Source of the DNA: Octopus vulgaris
Lineage: Eukaryota
Length of the DNA stretch: 64,000 nucleotides
NCBI GenBank assembly: GCA_951406725.2
Contig: OX597831.1
Span: 75,454,001-75,518,000, forward strand
Direction of reading: 5' to 3'
A program made the position numbers and the translations under genes. The notes below the pieces were generated by a model. That model did not search any database, was not told the origin of the DNA, and saw only the letters and a program-made list of their open reading frames with translations. Of this stretch, positions 3,128 through 27,094 are shown in pieces; within the stretch, counting starts at the first letter, position 1, and each line of letters starts with the position of its first letter.

Positions 3128-3159
<32 letters not shown>

Positions 3160-3749: not shown

Positions 3750-3799
<50 letters not shown>

Positions 3800-3874
3800 A
3801 TGTATGTATATATATATATATATATATACATGTATATGTATGTATATATATATATATATATATACATGTATATG

Positions 3875-3921
<47 letters not shown>

Positions 3922-4811
3922 ATGTATGTATATATATATATATATATATGTATATGTATGTATATGTATGTATATATATATGTATATGTATGTATGTATA
4001 TATATATGTATATGTATGTATATATATATATATATATATACATGTATATGTATATATATATATACATATGTATATATATATATACATATGTATGTATATA
4101 TATATATACATGTATGTATATATACATGTATGTATATATATATATACATGTATGTATATATATATATATATATACATATACATGTATATATATATATATA
4201 TACATGTATATGTATGTATATATATATACATGTATGTATATATATATATATACATGTATGTATATATATATATATACATGTATATGTATATATATATATA
4301 CATGTATATGTATGTATATATATATATATACATGTATATGTATGTATATATATATATATATATACATGTATATGTATGTATATATATATATATACATGTA
4401 TATGTATGTGCATATAAATATATATATATACATGTATATGTATATACATATATATATATAAATATATATATACATGTATATGTATATACATATATATATA
4501 TATATATATACATACATATACATGTATATATATATACATACATACCTATACATGTGTATATCATCATCATCATCATCATCGTTTAACGTCCGTTTTCCAT
4601 GCTAGCATGGGTTGGACGGTTCAACTGGGGTCTGGCAAGCCCGAAGGCTGCACCAGGCCAGTCAGATATGGCAGTGTTTCTACAGCTGGATGCCCTTCCT
4701 AACGCTAGGATATATACATGTATATATATATATATATACATATACGTACATATACATATATATATATATATACATACATACATATGTATATATATATATA
4801 TATATATACAT

Positions 4812-4852
<41 letters not shown>

Positions 4853-5179
4853 CATATACATGTATATATATATATATATACATACATATACATGTATATA
4901 TATATATATATACATACATATACATGTATATATATATACATATACATGTATATATATATACATATACATGTATATATATATATATGTATATATATATACA
5001 TATACATGTATATACATGTATATATATATACATATACATGTATATATATATATATGTATATATATATACATATACATGTATATACATGTATATATATAAA
5101 TATATATATGTATATATATATACATATACATGTATATACATGTATATATATAAACATATACATGTATATATATAAACAT

Positions 5180-5210
<31 letters not shown>

Positions 5211-5478
5211 CATATATATACACATATACATGTATATATATACATATATATACACATATACATGTATATATATACATATATATACACATATACATGTATA
5301 TATATATATATATACATACATACATGTATATGTATGTATGGATATATATATATATACATATATACATACATACATGTATATGTATGTATGGATATATATA
5401 TATATACATATATACATACATACATGTATATGTATGTATGGATATATATATATATATATACATACATACATGTATATG

Positions 5479-5525
<47 letters not shown>

Positions 5526-14643: not shown

Positions 14644-14949
14644 TGAAATGGATAAATGAATTATCTTGTTACGGATTATTCAAATTATAACCGATACCTG
14701 GGTAGCAAAAATCACAACAGAAAAATCACGGTTGAGGTTACGACCATATATATATATATATATATATATACTAGCATTATGACCTGTCGTTGCCGGGTCA
14801 TAGTGCTAGTGCATGTATATATGTGTATATATATGTGTACATATTACATGTACATCTATATATACATCTACACATAAAATACAAACTTATATCTTGATAT
14901 CGCTAGTGATAACAATACTCAAAATATATAACAGACTGGAATTGTAAGC

Positions 14950-15224
14950 CCGTCTCTTGCAATTTCGATCAATTGTATCTTGTCCTCCCTCTTGTATAGA
15001 AGTGTGGCTATAATCCAGCCTACCTCTACTGCTAGGGCGGGGGGCATTTTAAATTTTTATCCGGGACGTCCTACGTCCCAGATATAAAGGTAAAAATAAA
15101 ATATTTCCACTTTGCATGCTCCGTTGACTTGAACCTTGCTTCTATTGTGGCGAATTTACCGCCTCTGGTTAGATATCTTTCATAGTCGCACCAAGACACT
15201 TTTCGATGGTGCTTTCCTCCAGGT
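14950..15224 (-). pseudogene. 3' half of a decayed Tx1-type ORF1 (insertion target)
   Basis: Frameshifted peptides LEESTIEKCLGATMKD / YLTRGGKFATIEARFKSTEHAK / NILFLPLYLGRRTSRIKI align with ORF1 at 19139-20185 (IEEKKIENCLKPLMDKITYINRGKRYGTVEVRFTTEEIAK...NIVLLPLYRGKRTSKI). Confidence 0.8.
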
Positions 15225-15469
15225 TGTTTTATTATTACCCACAAGGGGCGAACATAGAAGGGACAATACAATCTGATGTGGGGTCAGACACACGAATGGA
15301 TTTTTACAATAAATCGAATTTAAAAATTTACATGAAATTACAAAATAGACACAAAATCGAATGATGGAACAGACCGGAAGACATTACGGGTGGAGTGGGT
15401 GCGGGTTTCGCTCGGACCCCACGAGCCCCGCCTCCCCACTGATACTTTTGGTTACGCTTGGTCTTACAT

Positions 15470-18400
15470 TTATGTTGTATCATTCACTCGCAACTTTCGT
15501 GCTACATCTTTCCATCGTTCTTCATACACTCTCCTAGTCAGGCATATTCTCTCCAGCCCTATCTTCCTTTTCAGGTGAAAGATGAAATAATTCATCAAAC
15601 CAGGGCCGGAGATGAACTTGCCTGACTGTAGACCTTTCATTCTCGTCTTCCATATCACCTCTTTCGCAATTGCTACTACAACGAGAAAACAAAACTTACC
15701 TTCTTTCGCGAGGAAATCCGGTGGGTCAATTTTTGTAATCGACTCAGTCGACAGCTGTACTCTTCGTGTACCTGACAACAGCTGTTCGGCATAAACCCAC
15801 ACCTCAGACACGTCCGGACAATGAACAATAGCGTGCGGGACGGTTTCCCTATCCCGCCCGCATCTTGGACATATCGGACTGTCTTGGCCACCGTGCCTTG
15901 CGAGTTTATCCCGAACAGGTAGAGCTCCTCTGTAGCATTGCCATGCCAGAGACTTCTGGAAGTTGTCCAGTGTCTTCGGCTCGAACGTACGTCGGAACAG
16001 ACTGGCCAGCTGATTATCGTCGAGACCTAGGGTTTCCCCCAAGGTATCTTCACATTCCGCCTCTACCAACCCTCTATAGAAGAATGTGGTGGAACCCTCA
16101 CCGCAGGCGTTGCCCGAGCGACGGAATAGCAGGAGAGCCTTGCGACACTCCGTGTACCAAGTGCCAAGTTTCGATCTACGATTCAGCCAGGTTTCCCATC
16201 CACCGAAACTAGTGAACTTGGGAAACATCAGTTTTGCTAGCAGAGACCACACCCGTTCATCATCCAGGTAGAGCCACAGATGTCTTAACCTCAGCGCATG
16301 TCTGCGCATCATCAGCCAAGGCATCCCTAGCCCACCCTTTAACGGTTGTTGACAGCAAGTAGAGCGTTTCACAAGTGGTTTCCCGCCCTTCCACAAGAAG
16401 TTGAAGAGCTGTCTTTCCAACTTGATCAACCACGAATCAGGGCAAGGAACGATGGAAAGGCGGTAGGTGATAACCGATGCGATAAACACATTGGCCACCT
16501 CCGCCCTCCCTTTCAGGGATAGCCACCGCCAAGACCAGATCTTGGTTACTGCAGCCACCCTGCTCGATACCTCGCCCCAATTCTTCTCTATTTGGAGGTC
16601 TGGACCGAACCAGACCCCTAGCAATTTAATCGGACCCTCCGTCCAACGTCCCACGACGCTGTCAGGAGGCATCGACTTGCCTCTCCAGGTGCCGAGTTGC
16701 AAGCCGACTGACTTTTCGCGATTAACTTTTGCTCCTGTCACCGTCTCGTAACCCTCTATGGCCTTGCCTACTTTATGTAGGTGGTCCATTTCGGTTACGA
16801 TGATGGTGATGTCATCCGCGTACGCTGACACCGATTTTCCACTACCTGGCTGTCTCGGGATGCCGCTCAGTTTTCGCAGTAATGGCTCAAGAGCCATCAC
16901 ATACAAAAGCGGGGAGAGTGGACACCCTTGATGAACCGAGCGCTTGATTTTGAACGGCTTCGACAAGAAGCCGTTCACCCGAACTACCGAGTCGATGTTA
17001 TCGTAAATTTGGATAATCCACCTGAGGAAGCCAAGGCTCAGCCCGAACTGTGCCAGAGCAGATACCAGGTAACGATGGTCGACCCTATCAAATGCTTTAG
17101 ATTGGTCTAATTGGACCAGTGCCCCACCCTTGCCAGAATCGCTATTAAACCCCTCTATAGTGTACCACATAAGATGGAGATTATCCTGAATGGTTCTGCC
17201 AGGAACGGCACATGTCTGTGCCTCCCCGATCAGACCATCCGCGACACGCGCCAATCTTTTCGATAACACTTTGGCCAAAATCTTCAACTCTGTGTTTAGC
17301 AGAGTGATGGGCCTGAAATTATCAATGCACTCCCCCTTGTTCGGGTCCTTTCTGACGAGTGTCACTACTCCCCGGCGCACAGATCTGGGTATAAGCCCGT
17401 TCTGCTGCCAGTTCGCATAGACCTCCGCCAGTAGGTGCCCGAACAAGTCTGGCATACTCTTATATAACTCATAGGGTAGACCATCTAAACCCGGCGCCTT
17501 GCCCGCGCCACAGTCCGCCATTGCCTCAACCACTTCCTCAGGCGTGATTGGCCCTTCACAGCCCTCCGCATCTCGCCCTGATAAGCGCGGCAGCCCGTCG
17601 AGTAGGTCCGTAAAGGCCCTCCTCCTATCCAGTCCGCCGCACTCACCGAAAAGCTGAGCGAAGTGCTCCTGAAAGGCCTCACACATCTCCTCGGGCTCGT
17701 TTATCAACTCACCTTGTTGGTTCGTCAAAGATCGAATCGTGGCATCGTTACCATGCTGTGCTTCCACCACTCGGGCCCATCTCACGGCGTTGATTCCTTC
17801 ACAACCCATATGGCGGATCCTAGCCCTGACAATGCAGCCCATGTGTTTGGCCTCAAGGTGCTGGTTTAACACCAGTCTCTTGGACGCCACCTGAGCCGCA
17901 GAGCCAGTTTTCAAGGCTTCCTCTAATTCCTTAACTAGAGTAGTTTCCCTTCTAGCCTCTCTAGCCACTACTCCTATGCTATATCTAATTGACTCGAACT
18001 TGATGGCTCGTTTGAGGGCATACCACCATTTGTTATTAATGATGGTACCAGATAGTGCCCTCTGAATTATATTCCTAATCCGGTCTTTGTACTCCTTAAT
18101 CGCCAAAAGGGACGTATTAAGTTTCCAGTAACCGGATCCTCTATTTTTAACCTTATCTATGTCAAGCTTACAGGTGACCATTTTATGATCACTGTAGCTG
18201 ATCGGGTAAAACTGTGGACACTTAGCTATTTTTCTGTCTACTTTTCTAATTAGTATTCTATCTAAATATGACCTGGAAGATCCGTCGCTGTTTGACCATG
18301 TCCACAATGGAGCGTTCGGAAATTCCAGCCTATAAGGATCTGCTAGCTCAAAGCGGCTTAGCAGTTCCATGAAGCCACTGTTACCTTTTCTATCTGAACG

Positions 18401-18853
18401 CGAGCCAACACAATCTACATCCGCTTTGCAAATTGTGTTAAAGTCTCCTAGCACAACTAATGAATGCGAAGTACCAAGAAAGTTTTCTAGTTCACGAAAA
18501 TAATCACTTTGCCCTGTACTGTTGGGTGCGTAAATTGCAACCAGTCTGATAACTTTACCGTTACTGAACGTCAAATCCATGACGACCAGCCTACCTTCTG
18601 GATCTGCAAAAATTAACTTTTTCTCAGAAACCCGGTTTCTTTTTATTAGGACCAACACCCCACTTCCGCCAGTAGAGAAAAAACTCTCGTAGCCGTCAAA
18701 CAGTGGGAGCAGACCTCTTGGCCCCTCTAACCGGGTTTCTGTAGCAACAAGAACATCTAAATTACGCGACCTGATATCATGCAGGAAGCGACCTTGCTTC
18801 CAGCCTGCTCCCAGGCCGCGCACATTCAAACAACCAACATAAATGTAATCCAT
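15470..18853 (-). CDS. Tx1-type ORF2 (APE endonuclease, reverse transcriptase, C-terminal CCHC zinc finger), 1127 aa, uninterrupted
   Basis: NVRGL, ETR, IYAPN, GDFN, YLDRI, SDH, GYWKLN, APGLDG, FRPITLLN, DQSKAFDRV, QGCPLSP, YADD and CPRCGRDRETVPHAIVHC motifs. Confidence 0.95.
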   Translation of the reverse strand: MDYIYVGCLNVRGLGAGWKQGRFLHDIRSRNLDVLVATETRLEGPRGLLPLFDGYESFFSTGGSGVLVLIKRNRVSEKKLIFADPEGRLVVMDLTFSNGKVIRLVAIYAPNSTGQSDYFRELENFLGTSHSLVVLGDFNTICKADVDCVGSRSDRKGNSGFMELLSRFELADPYRLEFPNAPLWTWSNSDGSSRSYLDRILIRKVDRKIAKCPQFYPISYSDHKMVTCKLDIDKVKNRGSGYWKLNTSLLAIKEYKDRIRNIIQRALSGTIINNKWWYALKRAIKFESIRYSIGVVAREARRETTLVKELEEALKTGSAAQVASKRLVLNQHLEAKHMGCIVRARIRHMGCEGINAVRWARVVEAQHGNDATIRSLTNQQGELINEPEEMCEAFQEHFAQLFGECGGLDRRRAFTDLLDGLPRLSGRDAEGCEGPITPEEVVEAMADCGAGKAPGLDGLPYELYKSMPDLFGHLLAEVYANWQQNGLIPRSVRRGVVTLVRKDPNKGECIDNFRPITLLNTELKILAKVLSKRLARVADGLIGEAQTCAVPGRTIQDNLHLMWYTIEGFNSDSGKGGALVQLDQSKAFDRVDHRYLVSALAQFGLSLGFLRWIIQIYDNIDSVVRVNGFLSKPFKIKRSVHQGCPLSPLLYVMALEPLLRKLSGIPRQPGSGKSVSAYADDITIIVTEMDHLHKVGKAIEGYETVTGAKVNREKSVGLQLGTWRGKSMPPDSVVGRWTEGPIKLLGVWFGPDLQIEKNWGEVSSRVAAVTKIWSWRWLSLKGRAEVANVFIASVITYRLSIVPCPDSWLIKLERQLFNFLWKGGKPLVKRSTCCQQPLKGGLGMPWLMMRRHALRLRHLWLYLDDERVWSLLAKLMFPKFTSFGGWETWLNRRSKLGTWYTECRKALLLFRRSGNACGEGSTTFFYRGLVEAECEDTLGETLGLDDNQLASLFRRTFEPKTLDNFQKSLAWQCYRGALPVRDKLARHGGQDSPICPRCGRDRETVPHAIVHCPDVSEVWVYAEQLLSGTRRVQLSTESITKIDPPDFLAKEGKFCFLVVVAIAKEVIWKTRMKGLQSGKFISGPGLMNYFIFHLKRKIGLERICLTRRVYEERWKDVARKLRVNDTT

Positions 18854-18862
18854 TACTTACCT

Positions 18863-20185
18863 TTATATCAGTGGTTCGTTTTTTTCTTTTTCTTCTTTGT
18901 TTATCTCTTTTTCCGGGCCTTGTGGGGGAGTCTGACGTAGGCCCTCGAATATATATGGAGATGTTAAATCCATTCTGAGCGGACCCACAACATGAAAGAA
19001 TTCGGACTTTATCCGCCCGTAATCCTTCCGGCCTATTCTGTAAACTATATAGTCATTCTTTTTCCCTATTTTTTCCACTTTGGCCATAGCTGCCAACACG
19101 TTCCCGAGTCTGTTGTTTGATGCCTTAACGGCCATATATCAGTTCATCGACTCTCTTTTCTTCTTTTGGATCACTCTTGGAGGGGTGGTTTCCGTTTTTC
19201 TTTTTTTTCTAGTGATTTTTGACCACCCCTCCTCATTGCTCTTTTTTTCCTCTGCCGCTGGTTCTGCTGCCTCTGTTACCTCCACACCTTCAGTCGTCCC
19301 TTCTGGGCTGCCCAGCGCTGCTTCTGGTGACACTTCATCTTCTTTTCCACCTGGCTGAGGTGCTTCCTGCGGTTTGGGTTGGGGTTGGCATTCCGCCTTT
19401 ACATGACCCTTCTTGCTGCAGCCGAAGCACCTCGGCTTTCTGCCCTCTACGAAAACTGTTATTCTCTCTTCTTCACTTATTTTAAGGGTTTCTGGAATCT
19501 CCTCCAGTGTTTGGATTTCTGCCTGAATGGCTATTACTATCCGCTGCCCTTTCCAGAATTCCTCCTCCTCTACTGTGGCCTGGAGGATGTTTATTTTTTC
19601 CTCCAGGCCTACCATGACTGCTGCCACCAGACATTCGGCATCTGTCTCTGGCGGAATGTTATTCATCGTGATTTTCGATGTTCTTTTTCCTCTATACAAG
19701 GGGAGGAGAACAATGTTCTCCGCTTTTATTGGCTCCATCGACAGTTTTTTTGCTATCTCCTCTGTTGTGAAACGCACCTCTACTGTGCCGTATCTCTTTC
19801 CTCTGTTGATGTATGTGATCTTGTCCATTAATGGTTTTAAACAATTCTCGATTTTTTTTTCCTCAATTTTTTGTATCATTTTGCTTGTCGTATTAAAGGT
19901 CTTATAGATTATTCTTCTTTTTTCGATTTCTTCATGTTTTTGGGCGTTTGAGACCACTGTCACTTCCGTGCCCTCTTTTGTAACACAGTCCGCATATTTT
20001 TTCAAGTCATCGACGTTTATTTTTTTGATTTTCTTACCAGCTACTTCTGAGAATTTTTTCGCTGGTGTTGGTGCTGGTGCAGGGGTTTCCTTTTTCTTTG
20101 GCGCCACCGCCTCTTTTTTCTTTGGCGACACCTCCGGAGATTCTTCTTCACTAGTCACGGGAGAATATGAGATGGGAGATTCCAT
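18863..20185 (-). CDS. Tx1-type ORF1 (gag-like, zinc knuckle CFGCSKKGHVKAEC) with one in-frame TGA at 19139-19141
   Basis: ATG at 20185 (MESPISYSP...). ORF 18863..19135 continues in the same frame one codon after the TGA. Confidence 0.8.
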
Positions 20186-20411
20186 CTCGAACAACTGGCT
20201 TAACAAGCCCTTGGTAAATTCAAGATAAATGGTATTTTTTCCCCCACGAAGGGGGGAACACCACCACAGAGTCCTCGCACGAAGGCTGACTTCAACAGTT
20301 GTACAACAATAAACAAAGACAGGTAGACACACAGTAGAATATAACGGAGAGAATAAATACGACGGCAAAATATAATAACTTACTATACACGCAATTAGCT
20401 TTCCTCCAGGT

Positions 20412-22129
20412 TGTTTTATTATTACCCACAAGGGGCGAACATAGATGGGACAATACAATCGGGAAAATGAATAATGAATTATGAAGTTTGTACAATGTGG
20501 TGTAATGCCCACTCGATCCCCGAAATCGAGCGGTTACATTTCGTCATTTGTTTTTTATTCGTCAACAATATTTTCCAAATAAAAACATTTTACACATTTT
20601 CAACATACATTTCAAAAATTTTACAAAGTTCAACATTTCTTTTTTTTTCAGAATTTAAAGTTCTTTTTATCATTTCCAAATTAAAGTTTTCACAATACCT
20701 TTTCTTTTATATATACTCCATTATGTCTACCAAATCTGAGTAAACTTCCATCGTTCGTGGCCACCTTGTAAGTCGGCATTTCATATGTTTTGACACGTTC
20801 TTGCCAGCTGCCTCGATGAACGCCTCAGCGTCGTTCTCGTGGACGAGTGCACCTGTTTCTTTCCATTCGGTGCCCATCCTGACCCACGTATATCCATTTG
20901 TTACGTTTATTAAATCTTCCATCTCCTCACAGTGCCTGTGATGGATCAACGTTCCATAGTATTTGAATTTTCTATTCGTACCTACGTTTTCTCTAGTTTT
21001 TCTCTTCGGACTTACTTCCTCTTTTTTCTCCTCCCTCGGTTTCTCTCTTTCTCTCTTTTTGCTTTCTCTTCTTTCTTTTCCCTTCTCTTGTCTTTTTGGC
21101 TCTTTGTCTGCCGTCTCTCTACCCTGTGCCTTATGTTCCTTTCCTGTTGTTTCTTTTCCTTTTTGCATACCATCTTTTCCTTTCTCTTGGTTCTGTTCCT
21201 TCTCTTGTTCTTTTCCTGCTTTTTCTCTTTCCTTTAATGTACTTTCCTTTTCTTTCTCTTGCTTCTGCCTTAGCTCCTTCTCCACTACTTCTGCACCTTG
21301 TGAATTTTGTTCCTTTTCTACTATCTTCTTCCATTTGTTTTCATTTTCCTTCAGTGCGCTGTTACTTCCCTTCTCTTGTTGTTTCTCCGTTATTTCCTTT
21401 TCCTTGTTTTCGCTGTTCTTTCCTTCGTGTTCGTTTTCCTTCTCTCCACTTTGTGTCTCTTTTTGCTCCGCTGTGAATTCATACAGCGGACATTCCTTTT
21501 TTATGTGCCCTCTTGATCCGCACAGGTAGCAATTCGGTTTTCTGCCCTCCACTATTACACTAATTGTTTTCTCGTTTTCTATTTCTATTTGGAAGGGAAA
21601 TCTTTCGATGTCTTCCATTGTGGCCATCAGCCACAACTCTACTCCAAATCCCTTCCAATTTACAACGTTCGTCTCCTTGATTGACCCTATTTCTACTTCC
21701 TCCTTTGCTGCCCCAATAATGGCTGTTACCAGCATTTCTGTTTTAATATCTGGGGGCACCTTTGGGACTCTTACCCGTACCCCTCGTCTTCCTTTATACG
21801 TCGGCCACATAGTGAAATTTTCGGCTTTCAGGACAGTGGAAGCCAATGAGGGCCACCACTTCCTTTGTTGCGCATCTCACCTCCACCGTACCATATTTCT
21901 TTCCTTCAATTGTTCTTTTCTAAAGAACACTTCTCTTATTCTAAGAGACTCGTCACTTTTTGTTGTGGCGACCCCCGCGTAAGTCTCCATGACTTGAGGG
22001 TCGACACACCTTCTATAAAAGGTTCAAACAATCAGCGGCAAACGCCTCGCGCGATTCAATTTTTTGACAATTTTTAACAGTTTGTTTTCAAATTTTCACA
22101 TACAAAATAACTCAATACACACGTGGATT
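20412..22129 (-). mobile_element. ORF1-only non-autonomous Tx1-family element (element A), ~1.7 kb
   Basis: It has an ORF1 homologue and its own 3'UTR, no ORF2, and the same terminal ~50 bp as element B. Confidence 0.8.
20707..21990 (-). pseudogene. Divergent ORF1 of element A (knuckle CYLCGSRGHIKKEC) with an N-terminal deletion and frameshifts
   Basis: ATG at 21990 (METYAGVA...), then frameshifted GKKYGTVEVRCATKE, then the open frame 21846-20707 containing VEGRKPNCYLCG. Confidence 0.75.
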
Positions 22130-22200
22130 GCGTTCCGCCAGGTGTTCAAATCTTCTTTTTTCTCTACATTGTATACTTTATAGACAATAGTCTTTTCTTT
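22130..22200 (-). pseudogene. 5' half of the decayed Tx1-type ORF1 target
   Basis: KEKTIVYKVYNVEKK/RRFEHLAER aligns with EKRRIIYKTFNTTSKMIQKIEEK of ORF1-B and joins collinearly to LEESTIEKCL at 15224. Confidence 0.7.
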
Positions 22201-22922
22201 AATTTAATTTTTTATTATCCATCTGGACTATTCCATTTCTGCACGCTTATTTTATTTTTAATTTATTCCCATTCATGTGAAACCACTTATTCAAGTTCAA
22301 GTCATTGATGCAATTTTATACCAATTGCTATTTTTACTTTTGTTATGTTATGATTATATTATACTTTAGTTTGATTTTAATTATTACTTACTACATATAA
22401 TTCAATTGTTATTATTATTTTTATTGTTAAAGTGAAAGTATCTGACATAAAATAGAAAAATGTTTTTTTTTCACTTTTAACACATAATACTGAAATAGTG
22501 GAGAAGATATGATATTGCTATGGGCTCGCTCTAGGCAAGAAGTTGAACATTTTTTTTGCCCATGAAACTACCTAAGTAAGGCATGTGTAAAATTTGAATG
22601 AAATTGGTTGTGTAGTTCTCAAGTTTTAGGGAAACAGACAGACACACATTCTCAGTTTTATATATAGAGAGAGATTTGTTGAATGAAACACAGAGCATCC
22701 TTAAAGAAATACAGTAACGAAAGGTTTAAAGTCAACTTTGCCTTTCATCCTTTCAGGGTCAACAAATGGGGTTGATTTAATTGGTATCAAAAGGGTTAAT
22801 GGCATTTGAACTCAGAACGTGCAGTCGGAAGAAATGCTCCTAAGCATATTGTCCAGTGTGCTAACAATTCATCCCCACCTCTTCCAAGACTTCAGGCCCT
22901 TGCGCCTTTTGTAGAAAGGATA

Positions 22923-25905: not shown

Positions 25906-27094
<1,189 letters not shown>

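Follow-up and report, generated by a model that had tools for sequence, protein, structure and literature searches.

A Helitron-type repeat of Octopus vulgaris as a probable landing pad for head-to-tail arrays of an L1/Tx1-group LINE and its ORF1-only relatives

In a 64-kb stretch of the Octopus vulgaris genome (contig OX597831.1, positions 75,454,001 to 75,518,000; hereafter the window), two retroelements stand head-to-tail inside a fragment of a retrotransposon ORF1, and that fragment is itself carried by a Helitron-type element. The locus raises the question of what the inserting elements recognise and how elements of different families come to be stacked at a single position. An earlier note on this DNA proposed that the elements are sequence-specific, that they target the ORF1 coding sequence of a related retrotransposon, and that amplification of this fragment by the Helitron may multiply their landing pads.

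Structure of the locus

The layered arrangement described in that note is present, position by position, on the minus strand of the window. The outer element has Helitron-type ends, A|TC at 22674 and CTAG|T at 14774-14771, with a hairpin at 14801-14779. The A|TC of the 5' end is there as described, but the window carries one extra TC and most other copies begin at the position equivalent to 22672. The 5' part (22144..22674) is a short variant, the final ~57 bp of which code for the KEKTIVYK..FEH segment of the captured ORF1. The downstream half of the captured ORF1 occupies 14945..15224 and is deleted in a Helitron variant designated H2, for which the nick lies near 14948, while the 3' part with the hairpin and CTAG end spans 14771..14944. 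The original target site, H1, is marked at 15209..15224 by a 16-bp copy of the target site duplication (TSD), ACCTGGAGGAAAGCAC.

Two elements, A (20412..22129) and B (15225..20397), fill this site, and each is followed by ACCTGGAGGAAAGC, at 20411-20398 and 15224-15211 respectively; the first of these copies forms the internal A/B junction (20398..20411). The pair of junction copies is as first described, but the count was incomplete, for a third, variant copy, ACCTGGCGGAACGC, occupies the front (5') junction at 22143-22130 and carries two A>C changes that create CpG. The core of this variant recurs at other loci, and the front junction is likely to be derived in part from an RNA leader. A and B are two inserted retroelements, as described; B is an autonomous LINE, and A is a member of an ORF1-only family and not a broken LINE.

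Element B has no poly(A) tail and ends in AATAATAAAACA. Its ORF1 (19139..20185) has 348 codons, with the C-terminal part running on in another frame to ~18862; in two other copies ORF1 is 437-448 aa long, and several ORF1 variants are paired with ORF2s that are ~97% identical. ORF2 (15470..18850) is open over 1126 aa and is predicted to encode an APE endonuclease, a reverse transcriptase (RT) and a zf-RVT domain (PF03372, PF00078 and PF13966). Against solved structures the best match of ORF2 is L1 ORF2p (E 1e-65), followed at some distance by R2 (E 4e-25), and among named RTs the closest is that of Argonauta hians (63%). The only hit named TX1 in the protein searches with B was a single fungal, automatically named protein of 26% identity, and no named animal Tx1 protein was among the hits. 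B is therefore classed, from these similarities, as a non-LTR retrotransposon of the L1/Tx1 group as a whole, with Tx1 not split from L1. A CCHC zinc knuckle in ORF1 is a feature of the Tx1 clade. Such a knuckle is predicted in the ORF1 of A (PF00098, E 1.9e-5), and zf-CCHC is found in protein-atlas look-alikes of B ORF1.

Element A has no ORF2. Its ORF1 has a ~195-bp deletion near the start and survives as an open remnant of 389 aa from stop to stop (20707..21876). A belongs to a family, A1, with 19 copies of ~1.93 kb. A and B share a 3' terminal motif (20412-20460 in A, 15225..15275 in B), which is likely the RNA handle for ORF2. The same motif is also the 3' terminus of a further LINE subfamily, which sits within the 5' UTR captured by the long Helitron form, and of short units that follow one another every ~185 bp in SINE-like sequence (L037:~950-1000; L111:2050-2423; L091:295). 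Elsewhere in the window (55920-57578 on the minus strand; 49079-52000; 3752-5522; 26000-27000) are a piece of a different LINE that includes an RT and shares 26% identity with B ORF2, as well as extended trinucleotide and (TA)n microsatellites.

The Helitron-type repeat as target

On sequence grounds the outer element is a non-autonomous Helitron-type repeat. The 5' A|TC is kept in 65 of 105 distinct copies and the flanking A in 90 of the 105, a T follows CTAG in 101 of 103 copies, and the copies have a subterminal hairpin and include some head-to-tail pairs. A check of 74 copies for overlap at the target site found none in 28; most of the others gave even-length overlaps, which are read as (TA)n context. 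Pif1-type domains are abundant in the genome, and at 30 Pif1-type loci no linked Helitron end matching the non-autonomous element was found within 1.5 kb on either side. The repeat is estimated to have about 1,000 copies. A 21-base pattern of the target gave 508 matches on one strand (the reverse-strand count is inflated by a variable gap), and the downstream half of the Helitron gave 2,251 first-look candidates genome-wide. The possibility raised in the earlier note that the empty element is single-copy is ruled out by this copy number. A longer form has ~570 extra bases with a 5' UTR and an ATG, giving ~180 codons of ORF1. The H2 deletion variant lacks the H1 site and is found empty too (L064), and both empty forms are present in contigs of two other organisms.

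Retroelement 3' ends are concentrated at the H1 site and its counterparts. A 30-base pattern from the 3' end of A and B had 111 exact matches, of which 100 were listed; two of these were the window's own and the other 98 were fetched and read by eye. Forty-one of the 98 lie directly before H1, 9 before H2, 28 at array junctions, 3 at a second pad termed H4, and 17 elsewhere. The Helitron site thus holds 78 of the 98 (50 directly on target and 28 inside arrays), and 102 exact filled terminal junctions were counted genome-wide, which bears out the proposal of sequence-specific insertion; the sequences downstream of the other A and B copies, tabulated for these 98, are non-random, as had been expected. 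Because the seed pattern misses C-type units, it does not see the 29 of 100 listed filled junctions that end in one. The 5' ends tell the same story: 94 of 95 A2 units are preceded either by Helitron flank (32) or by the 3' end of another unit (62). With multi-copy empty sites and 102 exact filled junctions, the suggestion that the Helitron multiplies landing pads for the inserting retroelements is also upheld.

In both H1 and H2 the nick falls 7 nt past the same purine run. A short core is retained where copies landed off target: AC(A/C)T in all 6 H1-type events and ATTC in 5 of 8 H2-type events. Exact TSDs of 13-20 bp were found at L100, L123, L131, L132, L150, L167, L168, L179, L180 and L106, and about 12 of the 29 loci inspected yielded none. 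The 14-nt junction copy noted after each element of the window stands, but the modal TSD is actually 16 bp. At L099 (junctions at 3137 and 4815 in the fetched sequence) and L144 there are C-type units that terminate 10 or 26 bp upstream of the main nick, and sub-lineages would appear to use shifted sites within the same Helitron. H4 belongs to another repeat, a composite one of 2 kb or more that includes a mariner-like fragment (L285-L314; 36 exact matches). At 12 of 30 such loci a 3' end of the clade lies no more than ~75 bp upstream, with several different nick positions; H4 is also found at L118, L142, L148 and L281. Many other H4 loci have a variable 16-18 bp insert that resembles a junction scar.

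Not all Helitron copies are filled alike. In a sample of 61 distinct sites, 8 were filled, all of them within the 29 belonging to the ACCTTC subfamily and none among the other 32 (Fisher p 0.0015), and that subfamily accounts for 94 of 100 listed filled sites versus 29 of the 61 sampled. The filled site of the window is one of the 6 exceptions.

The decayed ORF1 inside the Helitron is a real ORF1 homologue (tblastn E down to 1e-15), and its two halves rejoin in nature as the earlier note had them rejoin on paper, since, apart from the window, the 29 best-matching copies of the downstream half comprise 26 empty sites that are collinear and 3 filled ones. Over ~122 aa it is 25-41% identical to the ORF1s of the invading families, and so it is a distant relative of them. 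The nick lies inside this ORF1-derived sequence, in frame with the homologous domain, which would suit an element that recognises the ORF1 coding sequence of a sister retroelement, the Helitron having merely copied such a site. That explanation is nevertheless unlikely, and the claim of the earlier note that ORF1 as such is targeted is not sustained. The on-target matches are all Helitron copies, and no free donor of the captured ORF1 was present among the 42 loci from two donor-directed searches, nearly all of which run on into the 3' part of the Helitron (in L188 and L211 the end of the fragment could not be recognised, and four others have no site motif). The H2 deletion variant, which differs downstream of the nick, is used by a lineage of its own, and related lineages use the second repeat, H4, at whose site no ORF1 homology was found. 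An in-frame variant of the captured ORF1 has 178 exact matches at a place where most copies are frameshifted; it was considered as a possible free donor, and the loci inspected turned out to be Helitron copies.

Composition and origin of the arrays

Clustering of 227 segments gave B (53), A2 (48), C1 (22), A1 (19), C2 (16), A3 (8) and some small groups. No similarity to ORF2 was detected in 113 A and C units. Between families the ORF1 core has a dN/dS of about 0.09-0.13, with dS near saturation, a low ratio indicating that ORF1 is maintained by purifying selection. A1, A2, A3, C1 and C2 are thus interpreted, from sequence comparison, as five ORF1-only families of 8-48 units each that share the 3' end of their helper.

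At least two units are present in 32 of 50 H1 loci; the unit counts are minimum values, and a sample drawn through 3' ends is biased toward arrays. Random filling at a rate of 13% would be expected to give about 7% multi-unit loci, which indicates that filled sites attract further insertions. Between the Helitron 5' and 3' parts, C units usually come first, then A units and finally B. Among mixed arrays, counting only those followed as far as the Helitron, B holds the last position in 26 of 26, and at L181 a C unit follows B. The largest array has 23 units, 22 of A2 and one B, over ~44 kb (C7:100087075-100131565; L274-L278), and another (C22:41946800-41961050; L279-L280) has 8 A2 units.

The relatedness of units between loci bears on whether the arrays were built in place or spread as blocks. 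The nearest neighbour is at another locus for 24 of 33 A2 array units and 14 of 16 C1 array units. In 125 pairs of B copies less than 0.8% apart, the flanking Helitron sequences are a median of 6.5% apart, with a minimum of 2.8%, which indicates that the pads came first and were filled separately; co-transposition of arrays by the Helitron is contradicted by the same pairs. The Helitron is accordingly viewed, on these divergences, as a landing pad and no carrier of arrays, and the arrays as mostly independent insertions.

It is quite unlikely that blocks of units spread together, whether with the Helitron as cargo, by read-through retrotransposition of several units or by gene conversion between Helitrons, although a few observations point that way. 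One multi-unit block is common to L143 and L162, L121 and L122 are alike in composition and junctions, the units of one array tend toward similar age, and the divergences of A1 and B are correlated across loci (Mantel rho 0.55, p 0.007, 8 pairs), as are those of A2 and B to a lesser extent (rho 0.32, p 0.07). The A1-B correlation could stem from co-mobilisation or from shared age. Against block spread, no young B pair has Helitron flanks less than 2.8% apart, and the young B burst has the form of a star in which A1, A2, C2, B or bare Helitron lies upstream. Moreover, target variants private to a locus run through every junction of its own array (L099, L146). It is highly unlikely that the long arrays arose mainly when unequal crossing-over duplicated one or two founder insertions in tandem at the locus: the C7 and C22 arrays do contain several identical, non-adjacent units and most nearest neighbours of their units are within the array, as they are for 9 of 33 A2 units overall, but most arrays mix distantly related families and most units match best at other loci, so that local duplication probably applies to the two longest arrays only.

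The junctions between units bear on the direction in which the arrays grow. Terminal junctions have the plain target in 41 of 47 cases, versus a variant core in 55 of 81 front and internal junctions (with AACGC-form junctions filtered out). Of 12 pairs of neighbouring units from different families, 10 have the same variant core, where 10,000 shuffles gave a mean of 0.55 and a maximum of 5, and in the 23-unit C7 array the junctions drift stepwise from the target sequence toward the front. This sharing between neighbours suggests that newcomers likely insert into the upstream TSD copy, as in Drosophila R1, landing at the front junction and copying a TSD of ~16 bp. Growth from the front allows, though it does not predict, the B-last order. 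No age gradient along arrays was found from the load of private mutations, the upstream neighbour of the same family being younger in 13 cases and older in 13.

The variant junctions are also enriched in changes to C that create CpG, which occur in 49 of 90 front and internal junctions versus 1 of 47 terminal junctions and 4 of 78 empty sites. Selection for promoter activity or fold-back synthesis could underlie these CpG-rich variants. Many variant junctions form short palindromes, and one common form resembles a YY1 site.

Insertions away from the Helitron give an indication of what the element RNA contains. Five full-length off-Helitron events (L148; L150-152, one event; L281/L142/L283, one lineage; L302; and L181, a rearranged locus) start with GAAC, TTGAAC or ATTGAAC, which is Helitron flank, and in four of the five this leader is followed by a target-like string; the H2-type copy L180 has no leader. 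The RNA thus likely carries a short Helitron-derived leader and would come mainly from front units. The sole mismatch case pointing to priming by 3' read-through (L168) is equally explained by CpG decay.

The type of site used tends to be inherited. All 9 H2 copies of B fall in a single clade, and H2 copies have an H2 copy as nearest neighbour in 4-5 of 5 cases for A1, 3 of 4 for A2 and, less cleanly, 4 of 6 for A3; they are somewhat older. Since the A and C families encode no endonuclease, their site type would have to be inherited through the RNA, a preferred helper lineage or timing. The H1 and H2 lineages of B differ at 17 endonuclease columns (28 versus 5 open copies), none of which falls in the loop before YLDR, presumably the specificity loop of the endonuclease.

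Proposed mechanism and related systems

It is fairly probable that autonomous B and at least five ORF1-only relatives insert at one fixed Helitron site, with newcomers likely entering at the front, and that head-to-tail arrays are built in this way. A distant ORF1 supplied the Helitron with ~180 codons and a 5' UTR by capture; the repeat then multiplied, and separate insertions colonised it later. B ORF2 would nick after ..GAAC, prime reverse transcription on the shared 3' motif and cut the top strand 16 nt downstream, and it would mobilise the ORF1-only families in trans. Transcripts may start 4-7 nt upstream, within the Helitron flank, and the end of the cDNA would then anneal over the TSD and write leader-borne variants into the new front junction, from which the next insertion would copy them. 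A more tentative extension, possible yet doubtful, would have the array work as a queue: productive RNA would come from the front unit alone, which starts its transcription in Helitron flank. Families might then compete for insertion at the front, the 14-20 nt junction might evolve as a heritable, RNA-borne promoter and address tag, and the endonuclease-free ORF1-only elements might obtain and inherit their target site by RNA-DNA pairing, without choice by a protein.

Each single ingredient of this system has a precedent. Tx1-clade elements that target DNA transposons include, in the available text of one source, Xenopus Tx1 in the piggyBac Tx1D, crocodilian Tx1-Mar and SINEU-3 in Mariner-N4_AMi, and Tx1-9_AMi in a Harbinger (PMC4494074). 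As described there, these too involve an APE-type LINE, a fixed site in a high-copy non-autonomous DNA transposon and non-autonomous partners at the same site (PMC4494074). The octopus pad differs in being a Helitron-type element with a captured ORF1 of the same clade, and the partners are ORF1-coding families rather than SINEs, in arrays of up to 23 units. In 28S rDNA, the TSD on the 5' side of an existing Drosophila R1 copy serves as the insertion site for new copies, and the RNA of melanogaster-type R1 has 6-27 nt of upstream target, according to the portions of the account available (PMC2718515). Tandem growth at the 5' end is probably common to both systems, with a TSD of 14 bp in R1 (PMC2718515) and ~16 bp here. 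Unlike rDNA, the octopus target is a dispersed selfish repeat, and the octopus arrays mix six families and have inherited, CpG-rich junction variants.

HeT-A, TART and TAHRE likewise combine head-to-tail non-autonomous Gag/ORF1 elements with RT-coding helpers and add an RNA tag from upstream DNA, so far as the accessible part of the source describes them (bioRxiv 10.1101/782904). They occupy chromosome ends, whereas the octopus elements use an internal nicked site with a TSD, and the octopus tag would come from Helitron flank instead of the 3' end of a neighbour. HAL1 elements are also non-autonomous LINE derivatives that encode only ORF1, as stated in the available text (PMC5753468). The A and C families work like HAL1 but are no HAL1: HAL1s are mammalian L1 derivatives, the ORF1 of A and C is of the zinc-knuckle type of the local clade, and here five such families are site-specific and stacked with their helper.

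An annotation of octopus repeats lists active L1-Tx1 and Helitron families and, in its available text, mentions no nesting or targeting (PMC13282606). A search of the open-access literature, in the text available, found no Helitron-targeted Tx1 system with queues of ORF1-only partners. The combination of a Helitron pad that derives from ORF1 of the same clade, passengers from five ORF1-only families, mixed arrays that probably grow at the front and inherited CpG-rich junctions appears to be undescribed.

The system is, to judge from its copies, genome-wide and recently active. It adds to the safe havens of site-specific LINEs a Helitron-type repeat that has multiplied a fragment from the clade to which the invaders themselves belong. 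It also presents a young community of several families of ORF1-only passengers under selection, with copies 0.1-0.5% apart. Repeat libraries would merge these nests into chimeric families. With about a hundred dispersed, independently filled sites on dated pads, the poorly understood 5' joining of APE-type LINEs becomes testable, and the same sites make it testable whether the target is chosen by protein or by RNA.
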